64,000 nucleotides of DNA from a virus (IMGVR_UViG_3300044646_002092:1-64000), one strand, 5' to 3'; positions 3,684 to 35,623 are shown, counted from the stretch's first letter. Notes: a model not told the origin generated them from the letters alone. Translations and numbers: made by a program.

Positions 3684-4718
3684 TCAGTCCAAGGAATAGG
3701 TGTTGGGGGCTTGTCCAGCCTGTCTTGCAGCGTTAGCTTGAGGGTCTGGCACAGTTCTTTTTGCACGTACAGCAGCGATTCTATCGTCCCAATTTTTCTC
3801 GCTAGTAAGTCCTGCTTTATCTGCCCACTTATCAAATCCTTGGTTCTTGCGTCGAAGTTGCCCGTAACCAACAGCAGCAGCACCTCCAGCTACAGTACCA
3901 ATACCCGCACCAGCTACAGAGCCTGTGGCAGTTCTACCTAGTATTTTACCTACTCTTCCTAATGCTGTAGTGCTGTCTTTTTCTTCTTGGGTTTCGCCAG
4001 CGCCTGTACCTCTAGCTAATCCATATAAAGCACCCACACCTAACCCAGTTCTAGCTCCTTGAACAGCACCTACCGCACCAAGATTCGTGAGGCTGAAATT
4101 TGCACCCGACGAACGAGTGGCAGCGAAGTGAGTGAAATGTTGCATCTGTTTTTGTTGTGTGAAGTTTATTCTATTATTGTAGCCTGTCATAAATGGCTTA
4201 CCTAAAGATTTCTTCCAATATAAATTTTTCATTTCTGCTTCGTCATACTTGGTATTCATGTTTTTAATAGCGTCATTGTCAATCAGTTTTACTTGACGCT
4301 TGTTAACGTCGGGTTTTACTATATTGCCTTCATGTATATCTGTATGACCTAGACCTTCTTTTAAAAGACGATTTTGCATACGACCCACTTGACTACCAAG
4401 TTTGTATTGCTCTTTAGAATTAATTCCTTTAAATCTTTTCGGTAATGGTGTACCTGCGTAATTTTGAGTGTAAGAAACCATATTGCCAAGTTCGCGATAG
4501 TTCTGAACTGGAGGTACTAGTCCTGTCGCTCTAGCAGCTTTATCTGCATTATTGTATTCTTTTCTGATTGCATCTACAAAAGCTTCTGGGTACTCTCGCT
4601 CAGGATTCATGTTGTCGATGCGTACTTTGTTTGTAGCAGGGAAATGTAGTACGCGCTTGTCTGGTGTAAGAAGAAGGGCTTTGGCGTTGCGGATTCGGGC
4701 GAAGTCGGTGATGTTCAT
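3684..4718 (-). CDS. Protein-kinase-like (RIO/Kdo/Bud32-like) domain fused to a Gly-zipper module
   Basis: Catalytic loop GLGHTDIHEGNI, metal-binding VKLIDND and upstream TGLVPPV...YAGTPL. The C-terminal half is paralogous to 198..884. Confidence 0.7.
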   Translation of the reverse strand: MNITDFARIRNAKALLLTPDKRVLHFPATNKVRIDNMNPEREYPEAFVDAIRKEYNNADKAARATGLVPPVQNYRELGNMVSYTQNYAGTPLPKRFKGINSKEQYKLGSQVGRMQNRLLKEGLGHTDIHEGNIVKPDVNKRQVKLIDNDAIKNMNTKYDEAEMKNLYWKKSLGKPFMTGYNNRINFTQQKQMQHFTHFAATRSSGANFSLTNLGAVGAVQGARTGLGVGALYGLARGTGAGETQEEKDSTTALGRVGKILGRTATGSVAGAGIGTVAGGAAAVGYGQLRRKNQGFDKWADKAGLTSEKNWDDRIAAVRAKRTVPDPQANAARQAGQAPNTYSLD

Positions 4719-5584: not shown

Positions 5585-6300
5585 GGTTGGTTGTCTTGGT
5601 AAATGATTGTGAAAAAAGCTGTTTTGCAAGTGCCTGATTTTACTATAGACCATCCTGCATCAAGTAAAGTCTCTTTGATATATGGAGTACTTTCTTGTAA
5701 TGGTAGCAAATATGTTTTTAATTCTGGGATAGTAATTTTCCTTGCTTTTTTACGAAGCAGTAAACATTCTGCCTTGGTAAGTATTAACGTTTTTTTATCA
5801 ATTTCGTTCAACTGTTCTAGCTGTACATTCCTCCAGTTGTGAGATTTGATAATAGCCTGAGCCATTGTAGAGTGGTGAATTTCTTTATAACCAAAGTGTT
5901 GTGCAAGATAAAGATGAAGTCGGTCATAACCTTCAGCAACTTGCCTCTTTCCTGTCTGCCCTTTGTAAGATATCTTTAAGTTGTCATCTTCTGAGTCTAT
6001 GAATACTTCAAAGCCAGTTAGTAGTTCAGGGCAGTTGGCAAATTTACCTGCTAGAGCCGCTACACCTATGACTTTGGTGCTTTCTACACTTTGTCTGAGT
6101 TGACGTAACTCTAGGGCAATACTTTCGAGGTTATCCCCCATTTTTACGACCATCAACTGAGAGAATGTGGACATCTTAGCTATTTGCCCCTCGTTTTCCC
6201 AATCACTTAATGTCTTTTGAACTAAAGCTCTATCGGCTGGTATTTTTTCAATAGCGGCAATCAGTTCAGCATCTACTTCGTATACTTTATCTATTTCCAC
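5581..6300 (-). CDS. Putative DNA-binding protein with C-terminal winged helix; paralog of 20417..21064
   Basis: Shared blocks PELLTGF..D.E...K.SYKGQ / PEYLDGF.ID.ESRRVKYCGQ and ITIPEL...LLDAGW / VTIPEI...LDKLGW. Confidence 0.6.
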   Translation of the reverse strand: MEIDKVYEVDAELIAAIEKIPADRALVQKTLSDWENEGQIAKMSTFSQLMVVKMGDNLESIALELRQLRQSVESTKVIGVAALAGKFANCPELLTGFEVFIDSEDDNLKISYKGQTGKRQVAEGYDRLHLYLAQHFGYKEIHHSTMAQAIIKSHNWRNVQLEQLNEIDKKTLILTKAECLLLRKKARKITIPELKTYLLPLQESTPYIKETLLDAGWSIVKSGTCKTAFFTIIYQDNQP

Positions 6301-6315
6301 AGTTATATTGTAATT

Positions 6316-6499
6316 CTGTACTTATTTATCATAACATAGTTAAAATCCTGTACCTCAGTCTGTACTTTTTTTGTGTTAGCTGCTCCAACCTCAATATAAA
6401 CGTCAAATTACCTTGTACCTAACTTTGTAATTTCCCTCTTTCTGTTTGTACTTTTGGTCAAATAATGCCCTCAAACGTCGAGGATTCGTTAAGGTACAA
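6316..6499. repeat. Six dispersed YTGTACYT copies upstream of 5581..6300
   Basis: Copies at 6316, 6348, 6360, 6413 and 6446, plus an inverted copy at 6493. They bracket the minus-strand extended -10 TGtTATGAT (6328-6336). Confidence 0.6.
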
Positions 6500-6750
6500 G
6501 ATTTTCTTTTATTACTATTATTATTGGAGACACTTTTGAATTAGCCATGCGGCGTATGAGCTAGTACCTTAGTATCTACCTCACTTAGCATAGGAATCTC
6601 TGTGTTTTGCCATAGTATCTAGGTAAATTCACGCTATGTATGAAAGTTCGAGTACTATCGAACAATGCTGTGATGGCGCAAACTCGTTGCTATATGTTAT
6701 ATCGATGAGTGGGAATATTGATGAGCGTCGATATATCGAGAGAGTGGAAG

Positions 6751-6769
6751 CAAAATGATAATCATTCTC
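6751..6769. promoter_or_regulatory. Fur box-like operator
   Basis: CAAAATGATAATCATTCTC matches the canonical GATAATGATAATCATTATC at 16/19 positions. Confidence 0.55.
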
Positions 6770-6892
6770 ATTCTCGTTTAACTCTCGTATATACGAACAT
6801 CACATGAGCATACCCCATACTTCCCTCACACAAATATCATATATCCCTTATCTATCTCTAAGTCAAATATCATCCTTTTCATTATAAATTCA

Positions 6893-6935
6893 GTATCATA
6901 CGATACAGATTAAGCTACACTCTATACTGTATAAT
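6893..6935 (+). promoter_or_regulatory. NtcA-type activated promoter candidate
   Basis: GTATCATACGATAC (GTA-N8-TAC, palindromic GTATC/GATAC) followed by 23 nt and then TATAAT (6930-6935). Confidence 0.45.
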
Positions 6936-7319
6936 GCTTTCAGCGCATAAATAAAGCGCTCAGACAACTTTCACCAAGGAGAAATAAAAAAGAACCTCAC
7001 TTACCCTCACATAACGAACATGAAAATAATATAATGGGAGATTAAAAATATCCGATTGAAAATAGCCCCAAATTTTGAAGAGATAAGCCTGACCCATAGG
7101 ATTAAGCATACAAATACAGCTAAGCAGACTAACAAAGTCTTAGAGATGCCAAAAACTAGCAGTGTAGAGAGATATTAAGTTAACCGCTAATAGGAATATC
7201 GCGCACGATACTATATGCTAATACGAAAATTAGAGGAGCAAAAAGAATTTTCAAACTTTTTTATTCCTACAGTGTATAGCTTACAGCCACTTTTAAACGT
7301 TTACATACTACAAGGGGGC

Positions 7320-7348
7320 TTTACATTCTAGAGATAACCTGATAGATT
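7320..7348 (+). promoter_or_regulatory. Sigma70-type early promoter
   Basis: TTTACA-17 nt-TAGATT. Confidence 0.6.
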
Positions 7349-7449
7349 AAATCTCATGGAAAACGAGTTAAACGAGCCGCAAGGCAAGCACTTCTAATCC
7401 ATAGCTGGGTTGGTTTCCAGCACTGCCAAAAAGATTTTTTCTTTAGGGC

Positions 7450-7478
7450 TTGCAATTTAAAAGGAACTAAGCTAAGCT
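7450..7478 (+). promoter_or_regulatory. Sigma70-type early promoter
   Basis: TTGCAA-17 nt-TAAGCT. Confidence 0.65.
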
Positions 7479-7549
7479 ACTAAGGCGGTTGAAAAAGACT
7501 GCAAAAACAAAAAAGAGTGCTTAACTCTTTACCCAAACATTAAGCGACA

Positions 7550-7568
7550 GTACCTTGAAAACTGAATA
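7550..7568 (+). promoter_or_regulatory. rrn-type boxA antitermination element
   Basis: GTACCTTGAAAACTGAATA resembles the cyanobacterial rRNA ITS boxA (GAACCTTGAAAACTG) and sits just after the promoters. Confidence 0.55.
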
Positions 7569-8068
7569 TAGACTAACGTCAAATCACATCAAGTAATCAG
7601 TCTTGAGTGTCAAAACTTAGTACCTGTGTAAAAGATATCCTGTGATAAGGTTGCGAGTGGAAAAGTACGGTTAGTTATGTGAGAGTGAAAAGATAAGACT
7701 GAGTTATTCGGAAAATACTCGTAATTCAGCTTATACTTAGTATCTCGTGATTGGCTCTACGGGGCAAAACGTTGTCTATCTTGCTTAATGGGTAGAATCG
7801 TAAGAATAATTAAGCCTAGCATTGCTAGACATAACCTAACGATGGGTTGATACATCGCGTTACTTCTTTCTGTAAAGAGAGGGTAACTAAGACAAAAACT
7901 AAGTAGCTCTGACTATTCAAGATTGCTATAGGCTACTAGCTGAAATACCGCTAGAGACAGCTAAGACATATTCTTAGGTCTAATACACTATCCAATCTAA
8001 TAGAACGCTGTAACAGGCAAAAAGTGAGCTATGTAGTCTAGTCCTAACTGTGCTGTAAAGCTTTTCAC
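7569..8068 (+). ncRNA. Candidate large structured ncRNA (~500 nt), family unassigned
   Basis: No ORF. Closing stem TAGACTA 7569-7575 / TAGTCTA 8033-8039; c(UACG)g hairpin 7753-7764; GUAA-capped hairpin 7858-7886; long hairpin 7692-7733; CTAAGA/TCTTAG 7960-7976. Confidence 0.55.
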
Positions 8069-8093
8069 TTGAAATAACTAAGGAGATAAGATT

Positions 8094-9999
8094 ATGAGTG
8101 TATTAACTAAAGAATCATTAGACCGAAGAAGGCTTCATTCTGCAATGGGTGAAAATACTGATGCTTACTACGATAAGCTATATTCAAACTACATCTTACA
8201 TCCTGATGAGCCTATTTTAGAAGAGCATAAAGATAAGGCTCTTAACATTATCTCTAGAGATATTCGGGATTTAGAACGTAAACTTCAAACACTAAAAGAT
8301 AAACAAGAACGTATTACATTGATTGAAATTGTATAAATAAGCTGACAGCACAGCTAAGACTAGCACTATCGCTATGTCTATTATCGTGAGATTTATATGC
8401 TACTTGCTACTTTTAAGTATCCTGAAAGTGACTATGTAAGCGCTTTACAGGTTGAGAGTAAAGAAGTTCTTACAACACTTTTCAATGAGTTAAACGAAGA
8501 GCATCAACCGATTGATGTTAAGTTCTATCCTATTGAACAAGTTGAAGAGCGCTATATTTCTAGTAATGGGAGTATAGATAAGGTTTGGTGTATGAAAGAT
8601 AAGGCATTACGAAAGATTGTCTTGTCTGGTAAGTATGTTAAAAGCTTGTAACATTATGGGATAAGGGGTGAGGGGTTATTGTACCCCATCTAGAAATAAA
8701 ATATTCTCTAGAAAAAAAGTACCCGTACCCTTTGTAACCCTATCCCATAATTTCGATTTTCCCCAAAAAAATCTCAAACTATCTATGAGGCAATGAAATA
8801 AAATGGTTCAATACAACTTGATAAAAAGAGCAGAAGAAAAAGATTACGAACTTCTGCAAGAGAAAGGCTTTTTCGGTATTGATGCAAGTCTTGAAGAATC
8901 GCTTGAAGAATATAACCTAGCTATATCGTATAACTCTGGTTGGGGCGATATTGGTGACTGTACGGTATTATATCGCAGCAATGATGCAGACGGCTCTAGG
9001 ACATGGAAACAAACCTATGTAGACGGTGCAGAAATTTGTGCCAAAGTTGATGCAAGTTGGTTTGACAAAAAAGCGTTTTTCTCATTCATTGATTCTACTG
9101 ATAATGATTGGAAACTACAGCCACTAGTGCATCAACTCTACAGCCTAATACAGTACTATGGTGTAGACAATATCTTGTAGTGATTATTCCTAGCAGCATA
9201 GTGACAGTGTTGCTAAGAGTATTCACCTAACTAGTGTATATCTCTACTAACCTCTAAACTTGCCTATAGGGTAAGGAACCAATGAACAAACGTGAGATTA
9301 TAGCCGAAGGGCTACAACGTGGCTACAGCATCGCAAAGTCGATAGACCTTGTAGGTATCGGTGATTATGGTGATGGTCAATTTCTAGATGAACGTGAAAG
9401 AGTCAAAATTACTTCTCAAAATTGGCTAGAGTTCCATACTAACTATGCTTATGAGTGCGAAAGTCAAGATAGACAGTTTTCCCCTTTTGAGTTCTTGGCT
9501 AACGACATTAACGCGACTGAAGATAATCCAAGGGTTAAATTTGAGCCGTGGTTTGAGTTTGATGAGGCAATCTCTAGAGGTATCCGCAAAGCGCTGAAAG
9601 AGCGATGGAAGTCTATTCGTATGACTAAGGAAGATTACTGGAAAAGTTTTGAGGGTAGCCGTGATTTATTCGATGAATGCTGGAAAATGTTGAGACGTGA
9701 AGCTAAGCATACTGAGATTGATTTTAACGAAAATCTTGACATTGAGCAACGTCTCAAAAACTTCGCTAGTGACAAGGTAAACGACCCTAGAAGCAGGTTT
9801 TATATCTATGGCTAACTACGTTCGCAAGACTAGAGACTTATGGGATATCCTTGGTAACTACGGTCAAGGTTGGGAAGTGCTAACCTGCGCTACTTCCCTA
9901 AAAGAGAAACGCGAACTCATGCGAGACTATCGCGAAAACGAAGGTATTCCGCTAAAGTCTAGAAAATATAGACAAAAATCGCTAACTAGCGTAAGTTGA
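8094..9999 (+). other. Run of short early hypothetical CDSs: 8094..8336, 8397..8651, 8803..9180, 9282..9815, 9808..9999
   Basis: Co-oriented ORFs, several with SD-like leaders (e.g. AAGGAG before 8094), immediately downstream of the early promoters. Confidence 0.75.
8653..8751. repeat. Inverted repeat element (11 bp perfect arms, ~100 bp)
   Basis: ATTATGGGATA 8653-8663 / TATCCCATAAT 8741-8751, with an internal GGGG/CCCC hairpin and two TCTAGA palindromes. Confidence 0.6.
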
Positions 10000-24821: not shown

Positions 24822-25305
24822 TTTGGTCTTTTTTACTAATTGGTTTAGCTTTACCATTTTCGCGCTTGTCGTTGGCAAACCCGTCCCTCGAAGCTGATGA
24901 TTTACTCTCATCCATCACTGGCTTACCCTTATTCTCTTTTCTGACCTTATCCACGAAGTCTTGAGTCTTGTCAGTCCCTGCGCCAGCTACGGCTCTAGGC
25001 TTGCGAGGCTCAACATACTTCAATGTAGTGTCCTTAGCAGTTTTCTCTCTTTCTGCTGCTTTGTTAGCCTCATTTTTGTCCTTTAGAGCTTTGTTGGCAC
25101 GACCTTTGGCTTCAGATGCACCTTTACCTAAATCAGTGTAGCTAGCATTTTTCTTAGGGTCTTTCCACGCTGCTTTGCTTGCGATATCTTTCACAGCTCC
25201 TACAGTTGTTTTGATATCTGCCTTAGCGCGAGTTAGTAGGCGGTCAAGATTGCCAATAGCGAAGTCTGCTTCGAGTGGCGAGTTCATATGTTTGAAGTCT
25301 GTCAT
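24811..25305 (-). CDS. Lys/Ala-rich protein on the late strand inserted in the early block
   Basis: 164 aa. Has its own extended -10 TGaTACAAT (25337-25345) and N-terminal TDF/ADF motifs like the other minus-strand proteins. Confidence 0.7.
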   Translation of the reverse strand: MTDFKHMNSPLEADFAIGNLDRLLTRAKADIKTTVGAVKDIASKAAWKDPKKNASYTDLGKGASEAKGRANKALKDKNEANKAAEREKTAKDTTLKYVEPRKPRAVAGAGTDKTQDFVDKVRKENKGKPVMDESKSSASRDGFANDKRENGKAKPISKKDQIKY

Positions 25306-25312
25306 TTGATAG

Positions 25313-27301
25313 ATGTTGTTTTATTATTTTTATACTATTGTATCAGGACGTTGGCAAGAGGTATTTATGGAAGAGTTATTTAGAAATCTACAAGACCGCA
25401 TCTATGAAGAGCCAATTAATCGACAAACAACTTTAGAAGCATTTTACGATTTGCGTAATGCTTATGATAAATTACCCACTAATCCCACTTTTAAGTTTGC
25501 CGTTGGGCAAGAATTTTGGTTACTCAAGAACAATAAAGTTCAAAAGGGAAAAGTACGTGTTCGCCAGATTACTGAAAGTAGTGAAAAACTTGATTCAGAA
25601 AAAGATTATTTTCGTAGAAATACTCCAGAAAAGCTATTAATTCTTTATTCTCCTCATCAATTTAATGATGTGGATGGAAATTGGCAACTTGAAGAGTCTC
25701 AATTATTTGCAAGTAAGCAAGAGCTTTTGGAGTCATTGTAATGTTAGTTGTAGGTCATCTTAAACAACGTCATCTCGAATCGGATATTCGTTGTGACCGC
25801 GCATCTGTGCTGGGCAATCCCTTCGAGTTAATTAATGAAGAGAGCCGTCCTGCGGTATTAGCTGCACATAAAGCTTATTTAAAACTTGTCATCAAGCACA
25901 AAAATTCTGGTTTTGGACATCTAGTTGTTGAACCTTCTCAAGTTGGGGTTATAGATATTCCGACATCAGAAAAATGGAAGCGACCTACTGTAGATGAGAT
26001 TATTTCTGCACTTGAAAACCTTGTGCCTAAATACAAATCTGAAAGAGTCTACAGGCTCATGTGTTGGTGCAGAAGAGATGACGCAGAGAACAATTTACCT
26101 GCTTGTCATTGTGATTCGGTAATTGCTTGTATTAAAAAGTGGAGTGACAAATGAAAAATAATAATTATCGTCGTCTTCGCACTTCCATGTATGCTATGTG
26201 TCAACATCAGCGACCCAAAGGAAAACGTGGCGCTCACAAATTGAAACGATTAGCTTGGCGCGAAGAAATTGCTATGTTAGTTGAAGAGAATCGGCTTGAA
26301 AAAATTAATAGCATCGAAGACTTAGTACTTGCGCTGGTAAAAGCTGGATACAAGGTAAGCAAAGGTAAGAAGGATTTCCACTATCGGTTCGAGAACGACA
26401 TTATTTTTGGATTGTTTGGTGGTGAGGGAGATTATCCGATGTCCCCTTATACAGAAAACAAGATTTGTGCAGCAATCCGTTGCACATTTGATAAATGGAG
26501 TACAGCCGAACTTCTCGACTTAGAGTTTTTAAGTAAAGACCCTGATGTTGTGTTGATGGCATTGAAAGAACTTGAACACAGTAATTGGGTGAATCCATGA
26601 TTAATTTACGAGAAGTATTTGAAAAATATTCTTCTGAGTCACATACATTCCCACGAATCAGAAACCCTCTGCATCCAAAAAGACCTGATATTGCAGCTTT
26701 TTTACTTTTGGACAAGTTAGTACCTAACGATGGCTATAACATTATTGGAGGTGCTGGTCATGATGTAGTTTGGTTAGACACTAATATAGAATTACTTGCA
26801 GAAGTTGCTACAGAAGAAGATATTTTGTATTTAATTCGTTGTGGTGTACGCTTGGGAGATGATACTTTGGAGATGTTTACCTAATGGAAGATGAAATTGA
26901 CCAACCTCGGCTAACAAATCGTGAGCGTTCGCGCAAGCCTCATAAAACGTTGGGTTGGTGCAGTACTTGTGATAGGGATATGGTAAGTGCTGGTAGTAGA
27001 TGCCCTACTTGTGGTAAACGCGAGTCTGGAAACGAAGCTAGAAAAAGAGATGTGAGGATATATGAGTAAATGGTAACTTACATTGATTCAAAATGGCAAG
27101 AAACTTCGTAAATTTGGTGGTACTAAGAGTGATGTAAAGTGGGAGACTGAGCGCATGACTCATTGGTTAGAGCATTATGACCTCCATAAACAACTACCTT
27201 ACGCATTAATTAAAGATGTACCTTGTCAATTTGTCGTCTCGAAGTACAACAATCCCCGCACTAAAAAGAAAATTATCATGGAAGTTCGCAATTTTGAATA
27301 G
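25313..27301 (+). other. Hypothetical CDSs ~25367..25741 (SH3-like), 26151..26600, ~26597..26884, 26884..27069 (Zn ribbon CSTC/CPTC), 27083..27301
   Basis: Packed co-oriented ORFs. Confidence 0.6.
25741..26154 (+). CDS. DUF4326-family protein
   Basis: DRASVLGNPF...LMCWC...ACHCDSVI signature. Confidence 0.7.
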   Translation: MLVVGHLKQRHLESDIRCDRASVLGNPFELINEESRPAVLAAHKAYLKLVIKHKNSGFGHLVVEPSQVGVIDIPTSEKWKRPTVDEIISALENLVPKYKSERVYRLMCWCRRDDAENNLPACHCDSVIACIKKWSDK

Positions 27302-33510: not shown

Positions 33511-34130
33511 TGTTGAAAAATTTTGAAGTTGAGTGGAATAATATAGAGGATTTATCTAAATTACATAAAATTATAAAAGCGAGAATTTGCTCTTTAAAAT
33601 CCGATGGAGCTACTTTTGCTAGTAAGGAAGAAAAAAGGAAAATGATTCTAGATTGTTGTTTTTCAATTTATGAAGCAAATCTAGACCATATATTTGTAAA
33701 AGACAAAGATGCGGCAAGTAATTATTATATCTACGCACATTGCAACCCACTACAGGAATTAGATGCTATTTGCAAAGCTAAACCTGCTTTTGCGGCTACA
33801 TTAGGCTTAAATTTTGTTCCTTTCTATGTTGGAAAAGGTACGGGAGATAGAGCTTATAAACTAGAGCGTAATGAGACTTATAGGAAAGTCATGCAATTAC
33901 TAAATGCTAGAAATTTAAAACCAGACATAAAAATAGTCTCTAATAACTTACAAGAAGCTAAAGCATTAGAATTGGAAGCTAAATTAATAGATATTTTTGG
34001 TCTACAAATTTACGGTGGTTGGTTGACAAATTTAGATGAAGGTCACGACTCTAAGTTAAGAAGGCAGAGGTATGCTAAAGAGTTTAGTGTATTAAATCAA
34101 AAACGTTTTCAATTGTTCTCGGATAATTAA
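33510..34130 (+). CDS. GIY-YIG (LEM-3-like) endonuclease, probably homing
   Basis: YYIYAH...FYVGKGTGDRA...EAKALELEAKLIDIFG...LTN. Confidence 0.75.
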   Translation: MLKNFEVEWNNIEDLSKLHKIIKARICSLKSDGATFASKEEKRKMILDCCFSIYEANLDHIFVKDKDAASNYYIYAHCNPLQELDAICKAKPAFAATLGLNFVPFYVGKGTGDRAYKLERNETYRKVMQLLNARNLKPDIKIVSNNLQEAKALELEAKLIDIFGLQIYGGWLTNLDEGHDSKLRRQRYAKEFSVLNQKRFQLFSDN

Positions 34131-34149
34131 TTTCTACACCACAATACGC

Positions 34150-34185
34150 AAAAAGGAGATGCACATAATACATCTCCTTTTCTTT
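34150..34185. terminator. Bidirectional intrinsic terminator
   Basis: AAAAAGGAGATG-loop-CATCTCCTTTT, followed by further T residues. Confidence 0.75.
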
Positions 34186-34426
34186 ACGCTACTACCAAGC
34201 TAGATTTGCGGGTAAAAGCTACAATTGAGTTTTTGCCATTTGTTTTCTTGTCCCATAGTCCTTACTCATAAAGTAAAAACAGTGATAACTCTTACTAAAA
34301 CGTCGATACCTTTATATGCCCTTGTAGTGGGGCTTGATAGTAGTTAATGGACATAGCATTAATCGAAAATGCGTCCGCCTTAGTTCAACGAAATCTTTCA
34401 AGACATATTAATATTAACATAACACT

Positions 34427-35623
34427 ATGAAAAAAGCTTGCGGTTTCCGCTTCCAAGGTCACTACGTCTACCGTCAATATTTTGAAGAGCATGGCAGATA
34501 CAAAATCATGGTGTGGGTCGCCTCTAATCCTCCAGAAGAAGAATTGTGCGCTGATGTTGCCTTCTGCGGTGACTCTCACAACGAATGTATGGACAAACTC
34601 AAGCAATGGCTTGAAATCAATAACGATTGGGTAAACAAAACAGATGCCTAACACTAAATTTGAACTACCCGAAGACTTGAAAGAGATTACAGATTTCGGG
34701 TTTCAAGTCTTCCCAGAAAACGTTGTAGTTTATCCTCCTGATGTGTTGGTATTAACTTTAAATCACTACCCTTTAGAGGCTGTAGCTAAGTTATTTTCCT
34801 CTTTACAGACCACACAAATAAGATACTACGACATCACTTTTGACGGTGCATATCAAACTAAACTGAATCCAGATGGAACAATTACTTGCAGCCCTTACTG
34901 CACGGAAATTAACGGAAAGGAAATAGGCAGAACTCCTGTGAAACTAAAAATTCTGAAAGAGTTTAAATCAATACAATGGAAAGAAACAAATGGCAACACT
35001 TAAAAACCTCAAACCAGACCAAATTCTTTACAAGGTCAGAAAAGAAAAGGCTGGTCGTACAACAATGACTCGTCAAGTACTCGATACCATTCGTATTATC
35101 AGTGTAGACCTCGAAAATGAGAAGGTGGTGGCTAGTTATCGTGGCAGGAAGGGAAACTATCGCGATTGGCAACTCAAGTCTTGGCGAGTTAAAGAACCTC
35201 AAGTAAAGAGTCGTGATATACTCGGAAACCCTCGATACTAATCCTCCTCACGATAGATGACCTGCCCCGACCATCACGCTATTATTTATAAGCAATCAAG
35301 CAAATAACTAAAAACACATGAATCCTGATACCGCAGTTGCTTACGAACCCGAAGTTGCACAACAAGTATTGGCAGCAATCGAAGAAGTTGAGCCAGTTAC
35401 CGAAGAGCCAGAATTTATCTCGAACGAAGACTATCGTGAATTGTTGGCGCTTGCTATCAATGATGCTGAAGTTTGGGTTTCTCAAGCTGAAAGTCTCATC
35501 AACAAGATTGACAATGGCGAAAAAATCAAAGGGACGAAACTAAACGGCGCTGTTCGTAATGGTCGTCTCGAAATTCTTCGCTCTTCACTAACCGACGTAA
35601 AGACTGCCAAAGTAAGCGGCTAA
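34427..35623 (+). other. Hypothetical CDSs 34427..34651, 34644..35003, 34990..35241, 35318..35623
   Basis: Packed co-oriented ORFs. Confidence 0.65.

Follow-up and report, generated by a model that had tools for sequence, protein, structure and literature searches.

What is half a kilobase without an open reading frame doing directly in front of the first rightward gene of a virus? The question is raised by positions 7569-8068 of a stretch of 64,000 nucleotides (hereafter the window), with which a 116-kb IMG/VR virus record begins. Its only relatives within the phage collection are the Pseudanabaena phages PA-SR01 and Pam2. An earlier note on this DNA had suggested a single, ornate non-coding RNA of about 500 nt. 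One part of that suggestion stands, namely that the stretch is non-coding and structured; it follows a conserved sigma-70-type promoter and a boxB-boxA pair. The other part, a single RNA class of that length, does not. The explanation that we favour, with a probability of roughly 60%, is that the stretch is the mosaic 5' leader of the rightward early operon and is built like the leader of a ribosomal RNA precursor. We prefer it because the layout, with one or more promoters, boxB, boxA, variable helices and a helix flanking the product, is that of pre-16S rRNA.

The setting and the head of the transcript

The plus strand carries nearly all genes from 8094 on, and the minus strand carries the genes left of 6300. 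Between them lies a divergent gene-free region of 1.8 kb (6300-8093), of which the stretch is the last 500 nt. As the earlier note had it, the stretch begins right after a boxA, lacks ORFs (the longest stop-to-stop frame has 41 codons on the plus and 51 on the minus strand) and stops before the first Shine-Dalgarno (SD) sequence and ATG of the operon (Table 1). Upstream of the promoters, 6635-6873 and 7115-7228 share 69-78% identity with PA-SR01 and Pam2, and these conserved patches include a short inverted match at 6754-6802. The early proteins tested, ORF1 and its neighbours, have no family in Pfam or PHROGs, and the literature on PA-SR01 and Pseudanabaena phages that we searched does not mention the region. 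The motif CTAAGAC recurs after three hairpins and is not enriched within the window. Elsewhere in the window, inside the plus-strand gene block, the minus strand holds a permuted two-piece tmRNA gene (34093-34437; Rfam RF04321, 51.6 bits at 34184-34400), for which ARAGORN gives the tag peptide GKNSIVAFTRKSSLVVA*.

Table 1. Features of the leader and of the first rightward gene, numbered from the first letter of the window
Feature	Position	Strand	Description
Second, upstream promoter-like site	7320-7348	+	TTTACA-17-TAGATT, TG before the -10; consensus scan
Proximal early promoter, predicted	7450-7478	+	-35 TTGCAA 7450-7455, 17-nt spacer, -10 TAAGCT 7473-7478; read from the sequence
boxB-like hairpin 5' of boxA	7512-7530	+	7 bp, loop GCUUA; predicted fold
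rrn-type boxA	7550-7568	+	GTACCTTGAAAACTGAATA; core ACCTTGAAAACTG at 7552-7564, single copy in the window
M1	7571-7676	+	Y-shaped; closing helix 7571-7577/7670-7676; hairpin 7585-7593/7602-7609; GUAC/GUAC helix 7620-7623/7665-7668
M2	7690-7738	+	17-bp hairpin; predicted fold
UACG-tetraloop hairpin	7754-7765	+	GCUC UACG GGGC
M3	7775-7857	+	hairpins 7775-7781/7790-7796, 7816-7820/7824-7828, 7840-7844/7853-7857
hp2	7859-7887	+	GUAA-loop hairpin, 12 bp; empty form of an ORF-bracketing helix
D3	7920-7998	+	three-way junction; closing helix 7920-7925/7993-7998 and 7928-7931/7988-7991; hairpins 7936-7940/7950-7954, 7955-7966/7972-7981
S2 5' arm (leader strand)	8033-8063	+	nearly invariant in relatives
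SD and ORF1	8080-8336	+	SD AAGGAG 8080-8085; ORF1 8094-8336, ATG 8094, 80 aa, no family; in the S2 loop
S2 3' arm (trailer strand)	8339-8369	+	next comes the SD of gene 8397-8651

Transcription would start near 7485 if the proximal promoter is used. This promoter lies 72 nt upstream of boxA and is conserved: where the window has TTGCAA-17-TAAGCT, relatives keep TTGACA-17-TAAGCT or AAAGCT. The promoter motif stands at the head only. The upstream promoter-like site may also act as a promoter; in one relative (L017) the block that contains it sits directly 5' of boxA. The place of the boxB-like hairpin is occupied in most relatives by a hairpin of other sequence.

The boxA 19-mer, GTACCTTGAAAACTGAATA, is found unchanged in at least 120 bacterial contigs. 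In Faecalibacterium the identical sequence lies within the 16S-23S spacer, and in a Vampirovibrionales genome about 145 nt 5' of the 16S gene. Matches were obtained in 44 of the 301 cyanobacterial genomes sampled, almost all of them at the boxA positions of the query, and at two of the four cyanobacterial loci checked a near-identical boxA stands between a tRNA and the 23S gene. Since the matches sit in rrn leaders and spacers of bacteria, cyanobacteria included, the assignment as boxA holds. The head of the transcript thus has a boxA of host type downstream of a promoter and a boxB candidate 5' of boxA, which is the rrn order. In the same 301 genomes the rest of the leader, M1 and the S2 arms included, gave no consistent match. 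What the early operon would need antitermination for is not evident, since terminator-like sites downstream of the leader are no more frequent than in shuffled sequence.

Similar arrangements exist outside this group of phages. In unrelated viral contigs (L023, the 131-kb L031, L020, L044, L051 and L081) the same boxA 20-mer is preceded by a hairpin; in L081 it comes directly after a tRNA-like 3' end. A boxA-like match in a cyanobacterial genome (L222 in G293) lies just 5' of a cluster of six tRNA genes and not of an rRNA gene. A search of viral contigs by boxA pattern returned 68 matches and was set aside; most of them belong to a promoter of a different group of phages, CCTTGACAATTGAATA...TATAAT, which is unrelated.

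The domains and their distribution

If the stretch were one RNA, something should hold its ends together. The long-range closing helix proposed earlier consists of seven complementary bases whose true register is 7569-7575/8034-8040, one position from that given. When the 500 nt are folded in isolation, these bases pair with a probability of at most 0.065; with downstream sequence added the value is 0.0, and 8034-8063 pairs instead with 8339-8368 at a probability of 0.5-0.95. The 3' end of the stretch, in other words, belongs to a helix around ORF1 and not to one around the leader. The suggested pseudoknot is similarly displaced: the partner TTTTCACT lies at 8062-8069 and is mostly TTATCACT in relatives, where the other arm (7684-7691) is mostly lacking. 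By simple arithmetic, complements of 7-8 nt are expected by chance about 2-8 times in 500 nt, and the two long-range pairings are at chance level. Folding of the whole stretch decides nothing, because its z-scores against shuffles are weak and similar on both strands (-2.07 on plus, -2.69 on minus).

The local elements of the note exist. The UACG and GUAA hairpins and further stems are supported by the relatives, and compensatory changes were found in M1, the M3 hairpins (with the UACG hairpin counted among them), hp2 and D3. Two of the apparent hairpins are frames which, in relatives, enclose protein genes. A strong Rfam match would have removed the novelty; the Rfam 15 covariance models gave nothing at gathering score in 6200-8200, where the best E values, 3.4-8.6, belong to unrelated snoRNA and plastid models; none of GOLLD, ROOL, HEARO, OLE, the riboswitches and the tRNA-like models matches. 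ARAGORN found no tRNA in the same interval.

Fourteen related leaders were compared: those of PA-SR01 and Pam2, nine from IMG/VR contigs and three from metagenome contigs, the latter being all the new loci that a metagenome scan gained. Roughly 14 lake metagenomes contain between 57 and 100% of the words of the stretch. Two further loci that matched a 17-mer of the 5' arm (L008 and L014) were discarded as both matches lie within a 168-aa ORF. Depending on the phage, boxA is 280 to 1084 nt away from the conserved sequence at 8034, in the S2 arm. By BLAST, the segments M1 (7569-7678), M2, M3, hp2, M4 and M5 are found in varying combinations, with other sequences or small ORFs between them. Searches with covariance models showed M1 and D3 to be single-copy in a genome and confined to the leader. 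M1 is absent from two complete relatives (G304, G305) and from a 98%-complete one (G303), and D3 is missing from the complete relative G304. As the combinations of domains vary and complete relatives lack M1 or D3, a single RNA with one global fold is excluded; with closing-helix and pseudoknot partners not kept and domains reshuffled or absent, we reject the single large ornate RNA. The stretch is a mosaic of domains which fold independently and which are gained, lost and replaced among relatives.

The alignments behind the structures are shallow, with 4-9 distinct sequences each. In the alignment of D3 (A3, 9 phages) 99.4% of the cells are paired, compared with 88.4% after shuffling, where 0 of 500 shuffles reach the observed value, and 27-40% after sliding; six pairs show compensatory changes, and the covariation score is 0.354 versus 0.147. 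The first D3 hairpin has the loop UGAAAUACC. The T-loop-like element GCTGAAATA noticed earlier is real and is the loop region of this hairpin, TAGC[UGNAARAYY]GCUA (7936-7954), in which the 9-nt loop UGNAARAYY is conserved.

In M1 (alignment A4, 6 phages) the hairpin has three compensatory pairs, while one-sided changes are mostly to G-U and the closing helix varies mostly by wobble. The rest of the domain is 94% identical, including the tandem CCUGUG motifs CCUGUGUAAAAG and CCUGUGAUAAGG; one relative (L085) has an additional stem swap. The same CCUGUG motifs reappear, as GCCUGUAAAGG and GCUGUAAGGG, in an alternative module. The G-U pairs favour the plus strand: paired cells amount to 97.3% on plus versus 93.3% on minus for M1, and to 99.4% versus 89.9% for D3.

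M3 was aligned from four sequence types (A5) and has 92.1% of its cells paired, versus 82.7% after shuffling and 24-46% after sliding, with five compensatory pairs in its hairpins. An H-type pseudoknot between the loop GCUUAA (7783-7788) and UUAAGC (7810-7815) is possible, and the alignment neither supports nor refutes it because this helix is invariant. The predicted hairpin M2 is present only in the window and two relatives (L013, L088), at 98% identity. In the same two relatives the UACG loop is retained with GUCAU/AUGAC as its stem.

The leader sequence of relatives is present in RNA libraries. Two freshwater metatranscriptome studies yielded contigs that span the leaders of relatives from 7539 as far as 7848 and 8015. 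Differences in these contigs are located at module borders, and they carry the GUCAU/AUGAC stem variant (differences at 7756-7766). This evidence consists of assembled contigs, which have no strand, whose ends and depths are unreliable and among which DNA carry-over may occur. Assembly graphs of mixed strains break at module borders, so contig ends are not RNA ends. One 445-nt contig, with a depth of 32, reaches back about 55 nt beyond 7539 and so to the vicinity of the predicted transcription start, which is a weak hint only. In another run (X18) contigs cover 7141-7287 and 8177-8460 and leave the leader uncovered, and such contig gaps are no evidence on RNA levels.

Several of these observations would also suit a different product. 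The leader, or single domains of it such as M1 and D3, might be cut out, for example in hp2 or S2, and accumulate as an abundant early non-coding RNA acting in trans. As a decoy or sponge it could occupy a host nuclease, a defence system or an RNA-binding protein, with modules shuffled as anti-defence genes are. Several domains covary and yet have no Rfam family; the position is immediate-early, with highly variable content as in accessory regions. Unpaired segments are conserved as well, namely the recurring CCUGUG motifs of M1 and the D3 loop. Their conservation in sequence is an argument for a specific binding partner and hints at a sequence-specific role that may go beyond that of a mere leader. 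The leader contig of depth 32, set beside a downstream piece of depth 2.4 in the same metatranscriptome, would fit too, but assembly depth is unreliable for ranking the parts. Against such an RNA, no terminator or defined 3' end was found between the leader and ORF1, the contig ends at module borders are assembly breaks, and every domain is dispensable in complete relatives. We consider it unlikely. A more ambitious version is a longer shot again: the excised leader would be an abundant modular RNA, and each of its exchangeable domains (M1, the M3 pseudoknot, D3) would titrate or inactivate a host factor of its own as infection begins. If it were true, the modular leader would be the RNA counterpart of the variable anti-defence genes in the same frames.

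Helices that frame small genes

In six relatives (L007, L009, L010, L011, L017, L087) the arms of hp2 form a helix of about 31-33 bp (-37 to -47 kcal/mol) that encloses ORFs of 49-73 aa, and in Pam2 they stand around the 64-aa Pam2_182. The inner helix covaries (CUGUGCUGUA/UACAGCACAG versus CUGCGAUGUA/UACAUCGCAG), and the outer helix shows wobble changes.

In the window S2 brings together 29 pairs at -36 kcal/mol across ORF1. The window contains exactly two copies of the arm core CTGTGCTGT, which flank this gene in inverted orientation. Among 14 sequences S2 has 22 consensus pairs with five changes, four of them to G-U and one a break; the pairing rests on wobble changes and not on double compensations because the arms are almost invariant. 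S2 with its 29 pairs and the gene-bearing form of hp2 with its 31-33 bp both have what marks a leader-trailer helix: more than 17 bp, a position flanking the product and conservation in relatives.

Complementarity of gene flanks was also computed for all 104 plus-strand genes. Only two stand out, so that helices bracketing genes are rejected as a feature of the window at large. One is ORF1 (z = -4.0 against mismatched gene flanks). The other, gene 25313-25741 (25238-25806 with its complementary 65-nt flanks; duplex -40 kcal/mol, z -4.4), has a 3' flank that falls inside the next ORF.

The content of the S2 frame varies. PA-SR01 and Pam2 have the two arms next to each other, separated by a gene-less loop of 41-47 nt. 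In the other relatives they enclose seven unrelated ORF families of 54-112 aa, with the same SD upstream of the ORF and the SD of the next gene downstream. A complete relative of 145 kb has two S2-type frames in tandem (L016:1-1130), which hold different ORFs of 109 and 102 aa. In L087 (oriented 3830-4100) the frame holds a C-terminal remnant of the 102-109-aa family of L009 and L016, which looks like a decaying cassette.

Could the whole stretch then be the decayed remains of former gene cassettes, with no function of its own? The truncated ORF of L087 would be a case in point, relatives do carry ORFs where the window has none, and the hp2 site of the window and the S2 sites of PA-SR01 and Pam2 resemble deletion products. 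However, compensatory changes maintain helices in D3, M1, M3 and hp2, and M1 is 85-98% identical among phages in which divergence or replacement has affected the adjoining sequence. Nor does the plus strand retain a frame longer than the 41 codons given above, even from stop to stop. Because of the covariation we regard decay as very improbable.

Both frames share one design: an inner helix of 9-10 bp, an A.C mismatch, two pairs, a C.A mismatch and an outer helix. The resulting symmetric interior motif is found at 8043-8048/8353-8358 and in the hp2 helices of the six relatives named above, and it adjoins an inner helix of the form CUGYGMUGU/ACAKCRCAG. The motif has two-fold symmetry and looks like a site for a dimeric protein that binds double-stranded RNA. 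Neither an RNase III nor a dsRBD was found in the phage and three complete relatives, so for cleavage a host enzyme must be assumed.

Inverted repeats may of course act in DNA. They might be hairpin or cruciform recombination sites of mobile cassettes, as integron attC sites are, or part of an origin or packaging site. Genes come and go exactly inside the repeats, both arms are kept at empty sites, and the region lies between divergent operons; integrons, too, hold small promoter-less genes with imperfect inverted repeats that are exchanged between genomes. The details point the other way. One-sided helix changes give G-U on the plus strand; in DNA, or on the minus strand, the same changes would leave A-C mismatches, so that the wobble pairs speak for RNA. 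The ORF lies inside the hairpin and not between successive sites, and the conserved flanks reach the start codon and resume at the stop codon, with no fixed core triplet such as GTT. D3, M1 and M3 are multi-helix folds and not simple palindromes. Finally, no tyrosine recombinase (IntI; PF00589) matched in the phage and three complete relatives; with no integrase encoded, an integron-like mechanism is unlikely, and we think the DNA explanation as a whole quite improbable.

A possible course of events and known counterparts

Taking the stretch as a leader, the following sequence of events can be suggested. Transcription would start at the conserved proximal promoter. In the nascent RNA, the boxB-type hairpin and the boxA, identical to that of hosts, may recruit the host Nus antitermination complex to RNA polymerase. 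A chain of domains, M1, M2, M3, hp2 and D3, would follow, each folding independently, and last of all the leader strand of S2 would close across ORF1 with the trailer strand. On this account hp2 and S2 are two copies of one kind of frame, which encloses a small early gene or, when empty, is a plain hairpin. The frame helices could be sites of double-stranded RNA processing or stabilisation that cut the early transcript into units, host RNase III being the likely enzyme. The conserved flanks of the frames may also allow homologous recombination, by which relatives would exchange enclosed genes and leader domains.

The closest counterpart is the leader of rRNA operons. It contains boxB, boxA and boxC, helices hA and hB that come and go between clades, and a leader-trailer helix of 25-40 bp around 16S which is cut by RNase III and whose conserved 5' strand varies only by Watson-Crick or wobble exchange (PMC10250234). 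The phage leader has the same order of promoter(s), boxB, boxA, lineage-variable helices and a long helix flanking the product (29 bp, compared with the 25-40 bp of rrn). Its boxA is identical to that of real rrn operons, and the 5' strand of S2 likewise varies by Watson-Crick and wobble exchange only. The differences are that the phage helix encloses a small protein gene with its own SD and not an rRNA, that the phage helices are phage-specific, with no counterpart in the 301 cyanobacterial genomes, and that the frames are swappable and can be empty. It is by analogy with rrn that we suggest Nus loading and RNase III cutting.

Among phages, the lambda pL leader is comparable. There nutL, with boxA and then boxB, is followed by a structured, RNase III-sensitive leader before gene N. 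Common to both are an early promoter, an antitermination signal and a long structured leader before the first early gene. In the cyanophage, in contrast, boxB precedes boxA, as in rrn, and the leader, 2-3 times as long, is a mosaic of several domains. We know of no N-like protein for it. The early region of T7 has RNase III sites in the form of local hairpins between genes. Double-stranded elements among early genes could, similarly, cut the polycistronic early RNA of the cyanophage into units and stabilise them; here, however, the strands of the helix flank a gene on either side.

The exchange of small genes has a parallel in the PeSL cassettes of T4-type phages: in a hyperplastic early region, small accessory ORFs unrelated to one another stand between short regulatory sequences that are conserved. 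The PeSLs, each a terminator stem-loop joined to an early promoter, are repeated in direct orientation and act as exchange points between related phages (PMC2839356, PMC4122927). The modular exchange of small unrelated ORFs by way of conserved flanks is the same. But the leader described here has one promoter, at its head, and inverted arms that pair across the gene, and so it is not a PeSL arrangement.

With GOLLD (RF01998) and ROOL (RF03087) the stretch shares that it is non-coding, structured and borne by a phage. It differs in matching no Rfam model even at an E of 10, in having no conserved global architecture and in being a 5' leader and not a stand-alone gene. The notion of a GOLLD-like giant RNA is thereby corrected, and with it comes a more general point: a hairpin in a phage leader that looks empty can be a frame whose place for a gene is vacant.

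The observation in the earlier note is partly confirmed and its interpretation partly supported: structured RNA is indeed present and is new, yet it does not amount to a single ornate RNA. We place the stretch with antitermination leaders that carry double-stranded, probably processing, helices. The rrn antitermination complex is known to help long-range RNA helices form. If our reading is correct, a lineage of freshwater cyanophages expresses its first genes by the logic of host rRNA, with boxA, leader helices and helices that loop out the product, the looped-out products being swappable small genes. Phage borrowing of the rrn antitermination complex for mRNA processing would then be open to experiment in the culturable PA-SR01 and Pam2 with Pseudanabaena, and so would the exchange of early accessory genes and RNA domains and the role of three new RNA motifs supported by covariation.
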